Shown here: positions 12,023 through 24,320 of the stretch, piece after piece
How the letters are laid out: every line of letters starts with the position of its first letter
Position numbering within the stretch: position 1 is the stretch's first letter
Origin: a virus
Lineage: Duplodnaviria; Caudoviricetes
Length of the DNA stretch: 64,000 nucleotides
Strand: one strand, 5' to 3'
IMG/VR virus record: IMGVR_UViG_3300028833_000058
Notes under the pieces: model-generated
The model's input: only the letters and a program-made list of their open reading frames with translations
Told to the model about the DNA's origin: nothing
Databases searched by the model: none
Made by a program: the position numbers and the translations under genes

Positions 12023-12601
12023 ATTTAGGGTATGGGGGGTGCCCTCCCCCCCTTGCCAGCCCTTTACACGCGAGGGAAGAATCGGCACACTCTGACCGAG
12101 TAGGAGCTTTTGCCGTCCCATTTGTTCCGTCATATCCCATTCCCCCTATTTTTTTGTCTATTCTGTTCGGTATCTTTTGGTATTTTGCTCCCGAAGAAAA
12201 CAACACCATGCTCTAATTAAGTCATTGATATTACGCTATTATTATGTTTTTGTCGATTTGTCCGAATATGCTCATAATTTGTCCAAACCCCCTTCATCAT
12301 ACCCATATGTTACCCCCATTGTACCCCTAAGCATCGTATATTCAATGCTGTGTTTCAATTATTCCCTAGCAGTATCTCCCTTATGCTGAAGCATATATAT
12401 CCATCTGCTGTTATCCAATCTCCCCACAGCTTCTCTATACATCCCTAATTCATGCTCTTCTGTTCCCCCATTTTTTCGCTCTACAATGCCCATCTTCTTA
12501 TTCCTGCTACAAATTATGCTCGCTTGCAAGTATTCCTCTGTACGAGCTTCTTTTCGCTTTCTTTCGTATTTTTCTATTTACTCCCTCTGATTATTTTCTG
12601 C

Positions 12602-12630
12602 TTTACTTTTTTCTTTTTTTCGTTTATAGT
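12602..12630 (+). promoter_or_regulatory. sigma70-type promoter
   Basis: TTTACT-N17-TATAGT upstream of plus-strand cluster. Confidence 0.65.
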
Positions 12631-12680: not shown

Positions 12681-12956
12681 ATGACAGAAAAAGAATTAAC
12701 GCTTGAAGAGCTTGAAGCTAAGTTTAACAGAGCGATGGAACTTCATGATGCAGAAATATATTACAATGGTTCTATTATGGCATTAGAATCATTGAGAAGA
12801 ACTTTTATTGAATCTAAAGATAAAAGTATTACGGTTAAAGAATTAGTAGAAGAACTTATACCTGGTTTTATTAAAGTTGTAATTGAGGAACATGAAGCTT
12901 TAGTAAAAGAAATAGAGGGTAAAAGTTATGTAAAAGATAAAGCTACTCTTAATTAA
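12681..12956 (+). CDS. hypothetical protein, paralog family B
   Basis: Start moved to MTEKEL (AAGGA RBS); YYNGSIMALESLR...ELIP. Confidence 0.8.
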   Translation: MTEKELTLEELEAKFNRAMELHDAEIYYNGSIMALESLRRTFIESKDKSITVKELVEELIPGFIKVVIEEHEALVKEIEGKSYVKDKATLN

Positions 12957-12990
12957 AATTATATTGGAAGAAAGGACTACGGTGAATATT

Positions 12991-13284
12991 ATGACTAAAG
13001 AAGATTTAAATGAAGATACACCTACAGAAAAAGAAGTGAAAGAATTAAAAGAATTAACGACAATTATATTTTATGATGGATATACCAGAGGATTAGAAGA
13101 TTTTGCTAAAGCGTTAAATATGGCAGCAGCAAGAATTGGAAAGAATAATTTACCCGTAGACTTAATTGTTAATGAACTTATACCAGCTCATGTTAAATGT
13201 GTATGTAAGAAACGTGATGAAATATTAAAAGAAGTTGATAATGAAGGACAATGTTTAACAGTAAATAACGTTATTCTTAATTAA
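12991..13284 (+). CDS. hypothetical protein, paralog family B
   Basis: Start moved to MTKEDL; FYDGYTRGLE...NELIP. Confidence 0.75.
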   Translation: MTKEDLNEDTPTEKEVKELKELTTIIFYDGYTRGLEDFAKALNMAAARIGKNNLPVDLIVNELIPAHVKCVCKKRDEILKEVDNEGQCLTVNNVILN

Positions 13285-13312
13285 TTTTGTATTTGGAGAA
13301 AGGGTTTGCGCT

Positions 13313-13558
13313 ATGAGTGATAAATATAACATAGAACTTCATGATACAGAAAAGTATTATGAAGGTTATATTGATGCATTGGAGTACATAAGAAAAGGGT
13401 TTATTTATGACCAAAATGGGATTGGAATAAAAAATTTGAGCGTCAATAAATTAGTTAAAAGGACTATGCCTAGAGAAATTGAATGGGCAAAAAAAGAACG
13501 TGATAAAGCTATTGAAGAAATCAAGAAGAAATATGCTACATATATAATGTGTAATTAA
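13313..13558 (+). CDS. hypothetical protein, paralog family B
   Basis: ELHDTEKYYEGYIDALE. Confidence 0.8.
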   Translation: MSDKYNIELHDTEKYYEGYIDALEYIRKGFIYDQNGIGIKNLSVNKLVKRTMPREIEWAKKERDKAIEEIKKKYATYIMCN

Positions 13559-13581
13559 GTTACGGAAAGGATTTAACTACA

Positions 13582-13890
13582 ATGGAAGAAAAGAAGAAAG
13601 TTACTAAAGAAGATATACTTGAATTAGTTGGTGATTTACAAAAGAATGTCATGAAGAATGATATTGTTAATTACCATAATGGTTCTATTCATGCATTAGA
13701 ATCTTTAAGACATATGTTCATAGAAGGTGATTATGGAAAATATATTGCACGTGAAGAATTAATCAATGAGATTATTCCTAATTGTATCCAAATAGTCATA
13801 GAAGAACGTGATAATTTGTTAGCACGTGTTAATGAAGACGAAAATGTTGAAGATATCGCTAAACCTGAAAAACCAATATTGTACAATTGA
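13582..13890 (+). CDS. hypothetical protein, paralog family B
   Basis: YHNGSIHALESLR...NEIIP. Confidence 0.8.
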   Translation: MEEKKKVTKEDILELVGDLQKNVMKNDIVNYHNGSIHALESLRHMFIEGDYGKYIAREELINEIIPNCIQIVIEERDNLLARVNEDENVEDIAKPEKPILYN

Positions 13891-14194: not shown

Positions 14195-14422
14195 GTCTTC
14201 GATGTTTATCGTGTACATCTCTTCTACATAATCATTGCAAGGGGGTATACAGAAATCTACCTTGACAGTAATTTGACCACCACCAGCGTTAGCAATACTA
14301 CCAATGAACATTGGACAGTTTCTATAGTAACTACTTTTCACTTTTTCTCTTATTACTTTTTCTATGGATTCGTAAATCTTAGTTCTTAACGTAAAATAAG
14401 TGTAAACGTCTTCTTTATTCAT
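14180..14422 (-). CDS. hypothetical protein
   Basis: 80 aa, last gene of minus-strand operon. Confidence 0.65.
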   Translation of the reverse strand: MNKEDVYTYFTLRTKIYESIEKVIREKVKSSYYRNCPMFIGSIANAGGGQITVKVDFCIPPCNDYVEEMYTINIEDLQNC

Positions 14423-14837
14423 GAATTTTCTTTCCCTCTATAGTGAATTCTTGGTTATTATTTAATGTTATCAATACTTCATACGTTTTGTCAATCAAAT
14501 CTTTTGGTATCCGTTTGTCATTCTTTTTACTCTTATAGGCTCCCAATTGTAAAGACAACAGAAAAATTCTATCGTCAGTTATGTTTAGGTGCATAGGCAC
14601 TAAAGTCTCATTTGTTATTCGTGGTAAACTTTCGTGAAATGAAAATGTTGTTAAGCATTGAAACATTTTTGTATATACGAATAGACATATATTCATGCTG
14701 TCGTCATGTATAGAAATGTGAAAATGTTCATTGGCAAAAATTATTTCTAGAGTATATCCATCTTTTGTGGATATACATTCAAAACCAGCTTCGTTTCCGT
14801 GTTCACGAATAGTATCAAATTTAAATGGATTGTTCAT
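14415..14837 (-). CDS. hypothetical protein, paralog family C
   Basis: NITDDRIF..LGAYK..RIP..YEVL..NQEF. Confidence 0.8.
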   Translation of the reverse strand: MNNPFKFDTIREHGNEAGFECISTKDGYTLEIIFANEHFHISIHDDSMNICLFVYTKMFQCLTTFSFHESLPRITNETLVPMHLNITDDRIFLLSLQLGAYKSKKNDKRIPKDLIDKTYEVLITLNNNQEFTIEGKKIHE

Positions 14838-15270
14838 TGAACCTAACTACCGATTCTTCATTTGAGATAACCTCAAATTCTTGATTATTAGACATCATTA
14901 TTAATAACTCATAAGCTTTATTAATCATGCGATTTGGAATACGTTTGTTAGTTATGTTACTTTTATAAGCTCCTAACTTAATACTCTCTGTTAATATTTC
15001 GTCATTTGTGATGTTTGGACAAGACGACTTGAAGTTATTGTATGTATACAAATTGTTTTTGAACTCATAAGAAAAAATTGTGAAATGATTTTCTCTTATA
15101 AAAAGACATTTGTTTATACTTTCATTTTTACTGTTTAGTTTATTATTAAGCGATAGCTTGTAATCACCATCTATATCGTAAAAGAATAAAGACGAGTAGT
15201 TATTTGTGTCATATATCCTACACGATTTGTCAAATGTAATTGTCTTTACCATTGAAATAAACCCAGGCAT
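14821..15270 (-). CDS. hypothetical protein, paralog family C
   Basis: NITNDEI..LGAYK..RIP..YELL..NQEF; start may be 15252. Confidence 0.8.
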   Translation of the reverse strand: MPGFISMVKTITFDKSCRIYDTNNYSSLFFYDIDGDYKLSLNNKLNSKNESINKCLFIRENHFTIFSYEFKNNLYTYNNFKSSCPNITNDEILTESIKLGAYKSNITNKRIPNRMINKAYELLIMMSNNQEFEVISNEESVVRFNEQSI

Positions 15271-15685
15271 TGTTGTTTAAACTTACTTTAAATGGTTGTT
15301 CGTTATAAATACAGTTTAATAATTCATAAGACTGATTTATAATTTTTTCTGGAATAGCTTTACCATCTGTTTTTCTCTTATAAGCTCCAAGATACACAGA
15401 TAATATAAAAATGTCATCGTTGTTTATGTTTTTATCTATAACCTTATTTGTTTTATTTAACTCTGGACTTGTCATTAAATGATTATGTCGTAAACTATAA
15501 TAAAATAAAGTTGAATTCGATGAGTTTATATCTATCATACTTATAGTAAGATTTGTTTCATCATGTTGAGCGTTAAAACATATAGCGTATCCTTCTTCAA
15601 CTGTTGTAAAATAGAACGATACGCTATACTGTCTAACACTTGTTCTACTAATATCATCAAATTCAAAACTTTTATAATCAATCAT
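15230..15685 (-). CDS. hypothetical protein, paralog family C
   Basis: NINNDDIF..LGAYK..AIP..YELL..EQPF. Confidence 0.8.
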   Translation of the reverse strand: MIDYKSFEFDDISRTSVRQYSVSFYFTTVEEGYAICFNAQHDETNLTISMIDINSSNSTLFYYSLRHNHLMTSPELNKTNKVIDKNINNDDIFILSVYLGAYKRKTDGKAIPEKIINQSYELLNCIYNEQPFKVSLNNNAWVYFNGKDNYI

Positions 15686-16370
15686 TGAATTTTATCAACT
15701 CTTTATAAGGTGCTGATATCTTAGATAACTCTTCACGCATCTGGGTTAAATCCTGAAAGTCGTTTCTGTCATCCATTGTGTATCTAACGTAATAAGCGAT
15801 GACTAATTGTCTGGCTGTCAATTTACCATGACCTTGTTTTTTGGCCAATAAAAGAATCTTTTTAATTTTATCTTGAGTAGTTAACTCTTTGTTTAACTTG
15901 ATTAGATTATCCAACATGTAATCATCTTTTTTCAAACAAGCTATAGAAAAATCTCGTTCTTTCTCACTTGCTTCAAATTGACCATTCAACGCTGCTCTTT
16001 GCTCTTCGTCACGTAAGTATTTTTTAACTCTATTTATGATTACCTTAGTGAAATTCTTATTCCATTGCTCACTGTCAGTGTTTCTTAACATATTAAGATT
16101 TGAAAAAGAAGAAGTTACATAATCTTTGACACGTTCTTTTGGGATGTACCAATATTTTTTATTATGAGCACTTGTTCTTTCCATGACTTGTGGAAACTGT
16201 ACTTTCACGCTGTCTTTCATACGTACAGCAGTTCTTTTGGATACAGCGAATCTTTTCATGATGTCCTCTATGGTAACACCTTTTTCAGAATCCTGCATCC
16301 ATAGAACTAAATCGAGTAAAACTCTAGTCTTTTTATAGAAGATATCATTCAATTGTGTATCTGCTTTCAT
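15678..16370 (-). CDS. HTH protein: WYL-regulator (DriD-like) N-terminal wHTH fused to family D domain, no WYL domain
   Basis: LLDLV..GVTIEDIMKRFAVSKRTAVRMKDSV..FPQ..KYWYIP. Confidence 0.7.
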   Translation of the reverse strand: MKADTQLNDIFYKKTRVLLDLVLWMQDSEKGVTIEDIMKRFAVSKRTAVRMKDSVKVQFPQVMERTSAHNKKYWYIPKERVKDYVTSSFSNLNMLRNTDSEQWNKNFTKVIINRVKKYLRDEEQRAALNGQFEASEKERDFSIACLKKDDYMLDNLIKLNKELTTQDKIKKILLLAKKQGHGKLTARQLVIAYYVRYTMDDRNDFQDLTQMREELSKISAPYKELIKFND

Positions 16371-16695
16371 CGAATGGAACTTTCTTTAAAATGTTTTCTC
16401 TGTATTCTGGATGAGTTTTCTTATACTGTTCCTCATCTTTTACCATTTTATTTAACTTTGCTTGAATTTGATTTACAGTTTTTCTATCTTTTCCTCTTTG
16501 GTTATACATTCTATCGTAAGCAACAACAACTTCTTCTAAAGTAAGTGAATGTATACCCCTATCTTTAGCGATATCAAACAAGTGATAAATTCTGTCACCA
16601 AATACATCTTTTCTGATTATTTCAAGTCCAAGTTTACGTTTTACATCTTGGGTTAAATCACTTGAATCAAAGATTGACTCGTCATAATTTTTCAT
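16345..16695 (-). CDS. putative winged-helix protein, paralog family D
   Basis: RIYHLFDIAK..SLTLEEVVVAY..KTVNQI. Confidence 0.7.
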   Translation of the reverse strand: MKNYDESIFDSSDLTQDVKRKLGLEIIRKDVFGDRIYHLFDIAKDRGIHSLTLEEVVVAYDRMYNQRGKDRKTVNQIQAKLNKMVKDEEQYKKTHPEYRENILKKVPFDESRYTIE

Positions 16696-16714: not shown

Positions 16715-17392
16715 TTAGTATTCTAACAATGTAAATGTACCAACAGCACCTTTTACTCTTACGATACATTTGTTTTTAGCACTTTTTATTTTATTTGTTT
16801 CTAAGTAATATATCTTGTTTGCAATTTGATGTTTCGTCTTTTGGCCATCTCTACCAAAAGAAGTATAAACTTTGTAATAAGCTGCTGTAACTTGGTCTAT
16901 TGTTAAGGATTTCATGTTGAACATCTCAGCAAGGTCAAACAAATTAAAAATCTTGCTTGTAAAATCATCTTCTACTTCTCTTTTCAATCCAGCTCTGATT
17001 TTTATATCAACATCAGAAATGTTTGTCATATCGAATAGATTGTCAGGTGCATCAAAATGTTTATCAAGTTTAATTTCTACTTTCTTGTTTTCTTCAACTA
17101 ATGTATTGAACATTTCTTTTTTAGACTGTACTTTTTTATTAACAATCTCTTTTACTTCACTCTTTGAGATGACATTAGTTTTAGATTTATCATTTATGAC
17201 CTTGTTTTCATCCTTGCGTGGTTCAATGGATTTAACTTTCTTTGGTTCTGGAATAATATCTCTAGCAAGTGCATCTGGAAAAACAGCAATTTCGTCTCTT
17301 TTCCTTCTGAAAAAAGGAAATGAATCAAAACATCCTTCTATCCTGTTTAGCAAACCACTTTCATCTTTCGTTTTCGACATAGTTTTTGGCAT
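16715..17392 (-). CDS. putative winged-helix protein, paralog family D
   Basis: KIFNLFDLAE..SLTIDQVTAAY..KTKHQI..GTFTL. Confidence 0.7.
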   Translation of the reverse strand: MPKTMSKTKDESGLLNRIEGCFDSFPFFRRKRDEIAVFPDALARDIIPEPKKVKSIEPRKDENKVINDKSKTNVISKSEVKEIVNKKVQSKKEMFNTLVEENKKVEIKLDKHFDAPDNLFDMTNISDVDIKIRAGLKREVEDDFTSKIFNLFDLAEMFNMKSLTIDQVTAAYYKVYTSFGRDGQKTKHQIANKIYYLETNKIKSAKNKCIVRVKGAVGTFTLLEY

Positions 17393-17471
17393 TATTGATT
17401 TCCTTTCATATAAAAATTAGAATTTCTGACAAAAACTATAACATTAAAAATGAAAAAGTAAAGTTATTTTT

Positions 17472-18498: not shown

Positions 18499-19005
18499 CT
18501 ACTTTTCCAATATCTCAAAGAACAATCTACCATCTGTTAATTGACTGTGAACAAACCAAGATGTATTAAACCAGCAACTTCCTTTACTATTAAAATCACA
18601 TCTTTTATCCAAAGCAATTAGACCAATACCATTTTTAAACAACTTGTGTCTCTTGGTTCCCTCAAGTGCAGTCATAGGAAGTAATAAGGCAAATGGTTTT
18701 TTCAATTCATAACACCTTTTTATAATATCGTCCTTCAAGCTGTAGGGCGGGTTCGTAACAATCATGTCATATCCTTCTGGTTCGCATTTGAAGAAATCTT
18801 TACCTTCGTCTTTATGACTGTAAATAATGTCGTAACCAAAAGAAAGTAGTTCTTGAACAATGTTACTTTCTAATGTATCACAAGGACACCATACAGTTTT
18901 GACGTTATTTGGAATGTAATTTAAAAGTGGTTTGATAGCATAAGCTGGTGTATAGAGCTCATCGAACGCTCCTCTTTTAATGTAATCAAGCATTGCCTTT
19001 TTCAT
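18499..19005 (-). CDS. small phage N6-adenine DNA methyltransferase
   Basis: DELYTP, WCPCD, GKDFF, TNPPYS. Confidence 0.85.
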   Translation of the reverse strand: MKKAMLDYIKRGAFDELYTPAYAIKPLLNYIPNNVKTVWCPCDTLESNIVQELLSFGYDIIYSHKDEGKDFFKCEPEGYDMIVTNPPYSLKDDIIKRCYELKKPFALLLPMTALEGTKRHKLFKNGIGLIALDKRCDFNSKGSCWFNTSWFVHSQLTDGRLFFEILEK

Positions 19006-19732
19006 TTATCCTATCCTCCGCTATATTAAAATAAGTTTCATTAAGTTCAATACCAATAAAATCTCTATTTAATTTTTTACAAGCAACACCAGTAGTTCCG
19101 CTCCCCATTGTGAAATCAAGCACTATGTCTCCTTCATCGGTATAGGTCTTTACCAAATATTCCATTAGTTCCAATGGTTTCTGTGTTGGATGTAAATTAC
19201 TTGTTAGAATATCTCTTTTAAATTGAATAACTTGTAGTGGATAACGTAAACCGTTATCTTTATATTGGTTCGGTTGCTTATTTCCAGAATCCACTAATAA
19301 ACCTAATTTACCATTTTTAATTTTATTGGTTCTCAATGGTCCATCATGTTTAATCATCTGTGGATTATAGGTTGGTTGTTTGTCATAGAACACACAAATG
19401 TTTTCAATGACTTTTGCTGGTCTTTTCTTTAACTGAAATATATTTGTAGCTCTTTCTTTCTGCCAATACCAGTCATATTTATAGGCAGTCAAATTACTTT
19501 CTCTTAGAGCAGATGAAAACGGTTCGTTGCCAAAAAGACATACAACAGCGTCATCTTTTTTAATTCTGTTTATGCAATCCCACATTGGTACAAACGGTAT
19601 AGCTTTATCCCATGAACATCTTGTAATTTCGTAAGGTATATCTGTGATAACGGCATCGACTTTAATCCCATCTCCAATGAGAGTATTCATCACTTCTATA
19701 CAATCACCATTGTAAAGCTGAATATTACTCAT
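18986..19732 (-). CDS. N4/N6 DNA methyltransferase (beta class)
   Basis: GDC, TDIPY, HPTQKP, VLDFTMGSGTTG, FIGIE. Confidence 0.9.
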   Translation of the reverse strand: MSNIQLYNGDCIEVMNTLIGDGIKVDAVITDIPYEITRCSWDKAIPFVPMWDCINRIKKDDAVVCLFGNEPFSSALRESNLTAYKYDWYWQKERATNIFQLKKRPAKVIENICVFYDKQPTYNPQMIKHDGPLRTNKIKNGKLGLLVDSGNKQPNQYKDNGLRYPLQVIQFKRDILTSNLHPTQKPLELMEYLVKTYTDEGDIVLDFTMGSGTTGVACKKLNRDFIGIELNETYFNIAEDRINEKGNA

Positions 19733-20453
19733 TTTCTATCCTTTCTTTTGCGATATCAAAATAAGTTTTATTAGCTTCGATACCTATAAAATTACGATTT
19801 AATCTTTTAGCAGCAACCCCTGTACTACCAGAACCCATACAAAAATCTAACACTGTATCACCTTCGTTTGTAATCATTTCGATACATCTTTCCATAAGAG
19901 CAACTGGTTTTTGAGTTGGGTGATTAACTTTTTCTTTACTGTTATGAGGTAACGCAGGTATATCAGACCATACATCAGACAACGTAATTCCATCTTTTAA
20001 GTAACCTGTTGTATATTCTGGTCTTTTACTATCAACTTTAATCTTAATGTTGTTAAATGTATAATTCTTTTTATCTTTAGTGTAATAACAAATCGGTTCA
20101 TAACCAGATGCCAATGCTTTACCTCTTGTGTTGTTAAAAGCTCTTTTTCTTGACCAGATTATAATTCGTTTTTCGTAAAACGTTTTATCTAGCTCATAAC
20201 AGATTTGACGATTATATTGTCGTCCTGTAAAAATTAACAAAGAACCATCTTCTTTAAGTAAATTATAACAATAGTTAAAACAACTGTTACACCAACCAAG
20301 GTAATCAGATAAATCTCTCCATTGATTATCCCAGTCATTTTTAACAACTTGAAAATAAGGTATGTCTGTGATAACAGCGTCAACTTTTACATGGGTATTC
20401 ATGTCTTTTAAAATTTGATAACAGTCGACATTATAAAGTTTTATATCACTCAC
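19725..20453 (-). CDS. N4/N6 DNA methyltransferase (beta class)
   Basis: TDIPY, SDVW, HPTQKP, VLDFCMGSGSTG. Confidence 0.9.
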   Translation of the reverse strand: MSDIKLYNVDCYQILKDMNTHVKVDAVITDIPYFQVVKNDWDNQWRDLSDYLGWCNSCFNYCYNLLKEDGSLLIFTGRQYNRQICYELDKTFYEKRIIIWSRKRAFNNTRGKALASGYEPICYYTKDKKNYTFNNIKIKVDSKRPEYTTGYLKDGITLSDVWSDIPALPHNSKEKVNHPTQKPVALMERCIEMITNEGDTVLDFCMGSGSTGVAAKRLNRNFIGIEANKTYFDIAKERIENE

Positions 20454-24216: not shown

Positions 24217-24320
24217 TTGACTTATCCTTTCATAACTATTATTAATAAAACAAACATTTCAAAAAGTAAAGATATTTTTTTAATTCTAATAGACATAAAA
24301 ATAAAACCGAGGTTAGATTT

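Follow-up and report, generated by a model that had tools for sequence, protein, structure and literature searches.

A sensor-less DriD-type DNA-binding head fused to a phage-specific domain: a possible competitor for single-stranded-DNA-responsive regulators of the host

DriD of Caulobacter crescentus (Protein Data Bank, PDB, entries 8TP8, 8TPK, and 9PFQ) is a homodimeric activator triggered by single-stranded DNA (ssDNA), with a winged helix-turn-helix (wHTH) head followed by a linker, a three-helix bundle, a WYL domain, and a WCX domain. Its Arg37 and Arg41 read the two guanines conserved in each half-site; contacts to phosphates are made by Arg36, Thr38, Arg43, and Thr61/Lys62; and Leu10, Phe50, and the linker residue Phe74 join the two heads on DNA (PMC10853764). 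In the apo form, the three-helix bundle autoinhibits the head; in activation, residues R121, R122, P125, and E128 of helix alpha6 contact the C-terminal domain of the alpha subunit (alphaCTD) and the beta subunit of RNA polymerase (RNAP), with the DriD box overlapping the -35 element (PMC13004042, PMC12041258). The isolated head (residues 1-70) is monomeric and does not co-purify with DNA; it does bind DriD(78-327) in trans with a Kd of ~15 uM, an interaction that ssDNA weakens further (PMC12041258), and the bundle surface bound in this way also contacts RNAP (PMC12041258, PMC13004042). PafBC as well as BrxR and CapW, the latter two being repressors built as wHTH-WYL-WCX that control BREX, CBASS, and other defence systems, tie ssDNA or phage sensing to gene control (PMC11662680, PMC9122601, 10.1101/2025.11.13.688357). 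Here, we describe a relative of these regulators encoded by an uncultured phage. The gene, which we call wHTH-D, lies in a 64,000-nucleotide (nt) stretch of DNA (the window) that is part of a 148-kb virus record in IMG/VR (IMGVR_UViG_3300028833_000058), and it encodes a protein of 230 amino acids (aa).

With high confidence, this protein is a head of the DriD family that lacks the sensor and is fused to a phage domain. Like DriD, it has the wHTH with its base-reading arginines, its phosphate-contacting residues, and its wing lysine, as well as the residues that join the heads in the dimer and the first and second helices of the bundle. Unlike DriD, it lacks both the WYL sensor and the WCX dimer domain, and no third bundle helix, which in DriD provides the autoinhibitory and RNAP-contacting surface, is detectable in it. 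In place of the missing parts there is a phage-specific domain, predicted to be winged-helix-like, that we call domain D, and the whole is encoded by a jumbo phage of lytic type. It shares the broad superfamily with BrxR, CapW, and PafBC, but these are not its closest family.

A first-pass annotation of the window, made from its letters alone, had likened the N terminus to the heads of DriD-type WYL regulators, and the string that it quoted (LLDL..GVTIEDI..F.VSKRTAVRMKDSV..FPQ..KYWYIP) is present in the translation of the open reading frame (ORF). The likeness is borne out by sequence, profile, fold, and tree comparisons. In a phmmer search against all PDB chains, DriD ranked first (8tp8_A and 9pfq_Q; E of ~1e-4; query residues 12 to 77). 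In the AlphaFold2 (AF2) model, the predicted local distance difference test (pLDDT) score exceeds 90 over residues 11 to 80, and the best Foldseek match was again DriD 8tp8, the wHTH root-mean-square deviation being 1.1 A over 61 residues at 34% identity. The recognition helix is VSKRTAVRMKDSV, and the wing is K71-K72. The PADLOC WYL model matches residues 17 to 95 (E of 4.5e-5). By comparison, likeness to the Pfam family HTH_11 (PF08279) stayed below the gathering threshold of 25 bits (18.5 bits, E of 0.0019, residues 19 to 50).

We searched 1.84 billion representatives exhaustively with phmmer and obtained 186 matches at an E value of 1e-3 or less, nearly all of them to residues 12 to 100. 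Among the longer matches, Pfam WYL was found in 29 of 58 and WCX in 22 of 58. A profile made from the bacterial matches scored 316 bits against DriD and 62 bits against PafBC, and thus the family is of the DriD type, not that of BrxR, CapW, or PafBC; structures of BrxR and CapW were absent from the results of this profile at E values of 1e-5 or less.

The resemblance continues past the wHTH. A hidden Markov model (HMM) of 24 full-length DriD-type proteins gave the phage protein 101 bits and aligned its residues 11 to 119 to profile positions 4 to 118. The third bundle helix is left without an alignment; the match stops at profile position 118 (about residue 116 of DriD), and AF2 confidence is low over residues 81 to 160. 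The first-pass annotation had assigned everything after the head to the phage family that we call domain D. This is correct for the C terminus, where D is common to the phage protein and to two neighbours of 116 and 225 aa, and needs refining for residues ~78 to 119, which still match the DriD linker and two bundle helices. The same annotation had noted the missing sensor, and in Pfam there is indeed neither WYL nor WCX (PF25583) in the 230-aa protein. PF13280 (WYL) has no match anywhere in the 148-kb contig. We considered a split gene and reject it, since the contig has no coding sequence for WYL or WCX, either downstream or at any other place.

Residues of DriD were mapped onto the phage protein by the phmmer/PDB alignment together with a profile alignment. 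The base-reading arginines are kept, with Arg37 and Arg41 corresponding to R46 and R50. Arg36, Thr38, and Arg43 correspond to K45, T47, and K52; Lys62 corresponds to the wing lysine K72; and the head-dimer residues Leu10, Phe50, and Phe74 correspond to L19, F59, and Y84. Glu40 of DriD, which contacts C1, is replaced by V49. A hydrophobic residue is likewise present at this position in the nearest bacterial relatives, and this fits the T, not C, found at position 1 of their boxes. Overall, the DNA-contact positions of the phage protein equal those of the nearest bacterial regulator, P0012, except for V49, which is I in P0012. The loop that contacts alphaCTD differs from that of DriD (G18, A20, and E21 in DriD; D27, E29, and K30 in the phage protein).

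The full-length proteins nearest to the head, including P0012, are 45 to 49% identical to it over ~90 aa and come from metagenome-assembled genomes of uncultured gut and rumen Alphaproteobacteria with a G+C content (GC) of 28 to 41%, similar to that of the phage (~31%). Unlike the phage protein, the P0012-type regulators (loci L002 to L018 and L035) have the full length of 315 to 323 aa and carry both WYL and WCX. The nine phage rows of a 171-head tree formed one clade (Shimodaira-Hasegawa-like approximate likelihood ratio test support of 87), which adjoins the rumen alphaproteobacterial clade of L003 to L018 and L035; the clade joining these with P0012 and L002 has a support of 80. The alignment is short, the tree is unrooted, and support is moderate. 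This pattern fits either one capture from regulators of the probable host lineage or common ancestry with them, and it makes a low-GC gut or rumen alphaproteobacterium the probable host. The genes divergent from the bacterial regulators vary and include those for HEPN-SNF2, SNF2, PD-(D/E)XK, and AAA_5 proteins. They look like defence-island cargo, although this is not proof.

The bacterial regulators have a recognizable operator. At their loci, YGWC-N7-GWCR occurs within 200 nt of the start in 37 of 78 cases, and TGYCA-N5-TGACA, with at most one mismatch, precedes 15 of the closest clade's 17 regulator genes, at positions -70 to -75. This sequence is a low-GC version of the DriD box. Another group among loci L002 to L081 has ATGWCA-N5-TGTCRTA at about -41 to -56. 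P0012-type regulators carry the TGYCA-N5-TGACA box 5' of their own genes, and the phage gene does not. Nor did the host-type box exceed chance expectation anywhere in the 148-kb phage contig. Scored with a position weight matrix of 27 host sites, the best phage site reached 13.3; simulated maxima were higher, at 14.6 +/- 2.4. TGWCA pairs at spacings of 0 to 40 were not enriched in the contig. The Caulobacter-type sequence CGNC-N7-GNCG was rejected as a phage operator, with one intragenic match in the window and 0.38 expected.

The gene itself is real, and its two-domain architecture recurs. One homologue, P0001, is 93% identical, and members of its 90%-identity cluster reach contigs of up to 246 kb. 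At least five further clusters (P0002, P0003, P0011, P0211, and P0212) hold two-domain homologues at ~36 to 45% identity. In the one relative contig that we compared, the diverged L082, the gene order is kept: a gene for a D domain behind a Lys-rich N-terminal region (X-D), one for D alone, wHTH-D, and the downstream paralogues. The base-specificity residues are conserved in six of eight phage clusters. Of the DriD-like parts, short phage homologues (160 to 164 aa) have the wHTH and linker but not the bundle, and they also lack the helical spacer. By tblastn and megablast, the target has no relative among INPHARED phages, IMG/VR queried with the target, P0002, and P0003 returned no relatives, and one metagenome scan returned a single 2.6-kb contig. 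Separately, ten viral contigs in IMG/VR carry DriD-like regulators, eight of them full length.

Two short metagenomic contigs carry other fusions. In P0006 (258 aa), the DriD-type head is joined to T1RH-like_C, the C terminus of a type I restriction R subunit, and in P0010 (231 aa), it is joined to a Fic/DOC fragment. Either these are natural domain swaps too, or they arose as chimeras during assembly.

What might such a protein do? We imagine that it acts as a signal-blind competitor at host DriD-type boxes, a reading of function to which we would give a probability of roughly 0.4. The protein would oligomerize via D, either with itself or with its two D paralogues, and would bind the TGYCA-N5-TGACA boxes of the DriD-like regulators of the probable host. 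Binding is predicted to be constitutive because there is no sensor and no detectable autoinhibitory helix, and the box would be occupied without activation because the RNAP-contact surface seems to be lacking. The ssDNA-triggered response of the host would then be blunted, perhaps including the nuclease and ATPase cargo genes that lie beside some of the regulators. We favour competition because the reading residues match those of the host-type regulators, because a box can be defined for these regulators and not for the 148 kb of phage DNA, and because the autoinhibitory and activating surfaces seem to be gone. A sensor-less competitor would also be useful to a phage, since WYL regulators tie ssDNA or phage sensing to gene control. 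The fuller proposal, that a phage family made an activation-dead competitor from the head of a host ssDNA-alarm regulator and with it silences a DriD-type damage or defence regulon in infection, is more tentative and falls short of an even chance.

Several observations weigh against competition at host boxes. The base-reading arginine pair is replaced in two of the eight phage clusters (by R and S in P0002 and by H and K in P0011), with the fold and domain D kept, which is odd if reading the box is the conserved function. The DriD head alone is monomeric, and therefore D or the linker must supply dimerization in the right geometry; AF2 gave no confident domain arrangement for the 230-aa protein (predicted template modelling score of 0.41). 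In three genomes of the probable host type (~1.6 Mb), the exact box was not enriched over a reversed control, and of three extra exact-box sites examined in such genomes, two were intragenic; thus the host regulon is either small or undefined. The host, moreover, is one that we infer. As to the phage DNA, the relaxed sequence YGWC-N7-GWCR matched twice in the 148-kb contig versus 12.6 +/- 3.4 times in shuffles, but we reject a depletion of boxes, given that spacing and orientation controls were equally low elsewhere and given codon periodicity. Finally, the record covers ~62% of the phage genome, and boxes may lie in the remaining 38%.

The choice between a decoy for host regulators and a role in phage regulation, both of which the first-pass annotation had raised, is beyond what sequence analysis can decide; the indirect evidence appears to lean to host operators. 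HTH regulators of phage promoters are common, and wHTH-D could be the phage's own regulator, a captured HTH joined to a phage oligomerization or DNA-binding domain and acting on phage promoters, for instance in an early-to-middle switch or in autoregulation, instead of on host operators. We consider this, the main rival, somewhat unlikely. It would fit the position of the gene in a seven-gene operon behind a promoter-like site; the motif CTTTACTTTT(T) recurs at promoter-like positions of the window (12601-12611 on the plus strand, 17453-17463 and 24261-24271 on the minus strand) and CTTTACTTTT is found 5' of the module in L082 as well (~412-422). A 13-nt inverted repeat, whose TGTCA and TGGCA half-sites lie 35 nt apart, reaches across the -10 element and the first gene's start codon, but neither this repeat nor the TGTCA half-site after the -10 is conserved in L082, and we treated both as chance. 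Just 3' of the wHTH-D gene there is a strong hairpin (-31.3 kcal/mol, z of -7.25), and the only inverted repeat of L082 (2016-2061) occupies the equivalent place and has the same AGCGTA...TACGCT core. Such a conserved dyad would suit a regulator of phage genes, yet it lacks the G2/C4 pattern that the kept arginines read. The loss of arginines in P0002 and P0011 would fit drifting, phage-specific specificities, and the unseen part of the genome leaves room for phage operators. Set against this, the contig holds no host-type box and no enriched TGWCA dyad at any spacing, and the DNA-contact residues are almost identical to those of the bacterial regulators.

Two further observations concern these elements. 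The motif CTTTACTTTT(T) also lies just 3' of the box in several promoters of host-type regulators (L007, L008, L012, and L013), and it may be a -35-type element of the host group. The hairpin may serve as a control element in RNA or as a dyad bound by protein; its core consists of C-ending Ser and Tyr codons, and a flanking pair is changed on both sides.

Residues ~161 to 230 of wHTH-D align to the whole of the 116-aa protein and to the C terminus of the 225-aa protein, with a motif LT..Q..IAYY..YT in which the T of LT, the AY, and the Y are invariant. There are exactly three copies of D in the 148-kb contig. When profiles were run against 5.8 billion proteins, at near and longer lengths, nothing was retrieved but orthologues of the three genes and a few stand-alone D proteins (9 + 4 clusters). 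Pfam, PHROGs, NCBIfam, and PADLOC gave no match to D, nor did the Atlas feature search. Thus, the family is confined to this module, and its three genes are neighbours with overlapping or closely spaced frames, in an order kept in the diverged relative. Because D sits in three translationally coupled genes, we suspect that the three D proteins assemble via D or bind a shared target. In a further reading, which to us is quite improbable relative to competition at host boxes, wHTH-D would be one subunit of a DNA-associated complex of three D proteins (the Lys-rich X-D, the D-only protein, and wHTH-D), in which the head is an extra DNA anchor and the complex organizes, protects, or marks phage or host DNA. 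The conserved order of the three genes, the restriction of D to this module, the long basic N-terminal region of the first protein, and the predicted fold of D would suit such a complex. The AF2 model of D alone has a pLDDT of 85; in VIA it matched winged-helix domains of Topo VI-A, Fur, ORC/Cdc6, and MCM over 60 to 70 residues with Z scores of 5 to 7.1, and its structural neighbours in the ESM Atlas are the Cdc6 winged-helix domain and ScpB (template modelling scores of 0.5 to 0.63), consistent with D being a winged-helix-like domain. Against the complex, these fold matches reach only Z 5 to 7, Foldseek found nothing for the D model at E values of 1e-3 or less, and conservation of the base-specificity residues in most clusters argues for reading of a specific sequence.

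Inhibition at the protein level, in which the head would bind the three-helix bundle of a host DriD-type regulator in trans or form mixed head dimers and so block DNA binding or RNAP contact, would draw on the known trans interaction with a bundle surface that also meets RNAP, on the kept interface residues L19, F59, and Y84, and on the tolerated loss of arginines in P0002 and P0011, but it seems very improbable, given that this interaction is weak and further weakened by ssDNA, that it gives domain D no role, and that every DNA-contact residue is kept in most family members.

Phages encode regulators of host type, such as WhiB of mycobacteriophage TM4, which inhibits host WhiB2, and VqmA of vibriophage VP882. 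Like these, wHTH-D is a phage homologue of a host regulator, and it would be used either against the host regulon or for the phage's own genes. Unlike them, it is not full length; it keeps the DNA-binding head only, with the sensor swapped for a phage domain. In the literature that we searched, there was no description of a phage-encoded DriD-type head without WYL or of a phage factor aimed at WYL regulators.

The features of the locus are collected in Table 1. Genes for a tail sheath, for several helicases, and for DNA methyltransferases lie in the window; completeness of the record is estimated at 62%. Members of the 90%-identity clusters of the relatives of wHTH-D are carried by contigs of 236 to 250 kb, which points to a jumbo myovirus lineage. 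The wHTH-D gene is the third in a tightly packed, leftward operon of seven genes, which encode proteins of 225, 116, and 230 aa, then the paralogues of 151, 149, and 140 aa, and then one of 80 aa. It shares 26 nt at its start with the upstream gene and 8 nt at its end with the downstream gene. The paralogues of 151, 149, and 140 aa have in common a C-terminal motif, (L/Y)(G/Q)AYK...IP...Y(E)L...F, and have no family match in Pfam or PHROGs; they probably belong to the wHTH-D operon.

Table 1. Coordinates of the wHTH-D gene, the parts of its product, and the surrounding module in the 64,000-nt window
Feature	Position	Strand	Basis or remark
wHTH-D gene, 230 aa	15678..16370	-	ORF; stop codon 15678-15680
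DriD-type wHTH, residues 11-77	16140..16340	-	phmmer, Foldseek, HMM; AF2 pLDDT >90
DriD-like linker and first two helices of the three-helix bundle, residues 78-119	16014..16139	-	HMM alignment; low AF2 confidence (pLDDT 42-59)
Helical spacer, low model confidence, residues 120-160	15891..16013	-	AF2
Domain D, predicted winged-helix-like, lineage-specific, residues 161-230	15681..15890	-	Alignments, profile searches, AF2
First module gene, 225 aa: Lys-rich N-terminal region and D domain	16715..17392	-	L082 orthologue 495-1052
Upstream gene, 116 aa: stand-alone D-domain paralogue	16345..16695	-	L082 orthologue 1056-1418
Three close-packed downstream paralogues (151, 149, and 140 aa)	14415..15685	-	Orthologues after the wHTH-D gene in L082
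Promoter-like site TTTACT-16-TATAGT, TG ahead of the -10	17435..17462	-	Consensus match only; 79-nt gap 5' of the module
Strong hairpin/inverted repeat	15569..15640	-	Just past the wHTH-D stop, within the 5' part of the next gene

Two other sets of repeated genes were seen in the window. A second family of small paralogues occupies 12735-13890 on the plus strand (ORFs 12964-13284, 13313-13558, and 13582-13890, plus an upstream copy); it was exposed by the direct repeats D2 to D4 and D7, and its transcription runs toward the wHTH-D operon. On the minus strand, tandem paralogues of the N6_N4 DNA methyltransferase type lie at 18986-19732 and 19725-20453, with a 136-nt stretch that is 73% identical; a third, EcoRI-methylase-like fragment gene is at 18499-19005.

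WYL regulators such as DriD, PafBC, BrxR, and CapW tie ssDNA, a hallmark of both DNA damage and phage replication, to damage responses and anti-phage systems. A sensor-less head that retains the operator-reading residues would be a simple and general way for a phage to blind this alarm, and it would offer a natural experiment in how a DriD-type head binds DNA without the WYL-WCX core. If the proposal is true, wHTH-D would be the first counter-defence directed at transcriptional control by the WYL family and would exemplify the theft of a domain with a subsequent swap of its sensor. Even if the protein regulates phage genes only, it would show cleanly how a single module of a regulator from the host lineage was captured by a phage. 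The finding further indicates that this uncultured jumbo phage probably infects uncultured, low-GC Alphaproteobacteria of the gut, and the conserved box TGYCA-N5-TGACA is now defined for a large group of unstudied DriD-like regulators in these gut bacteria.

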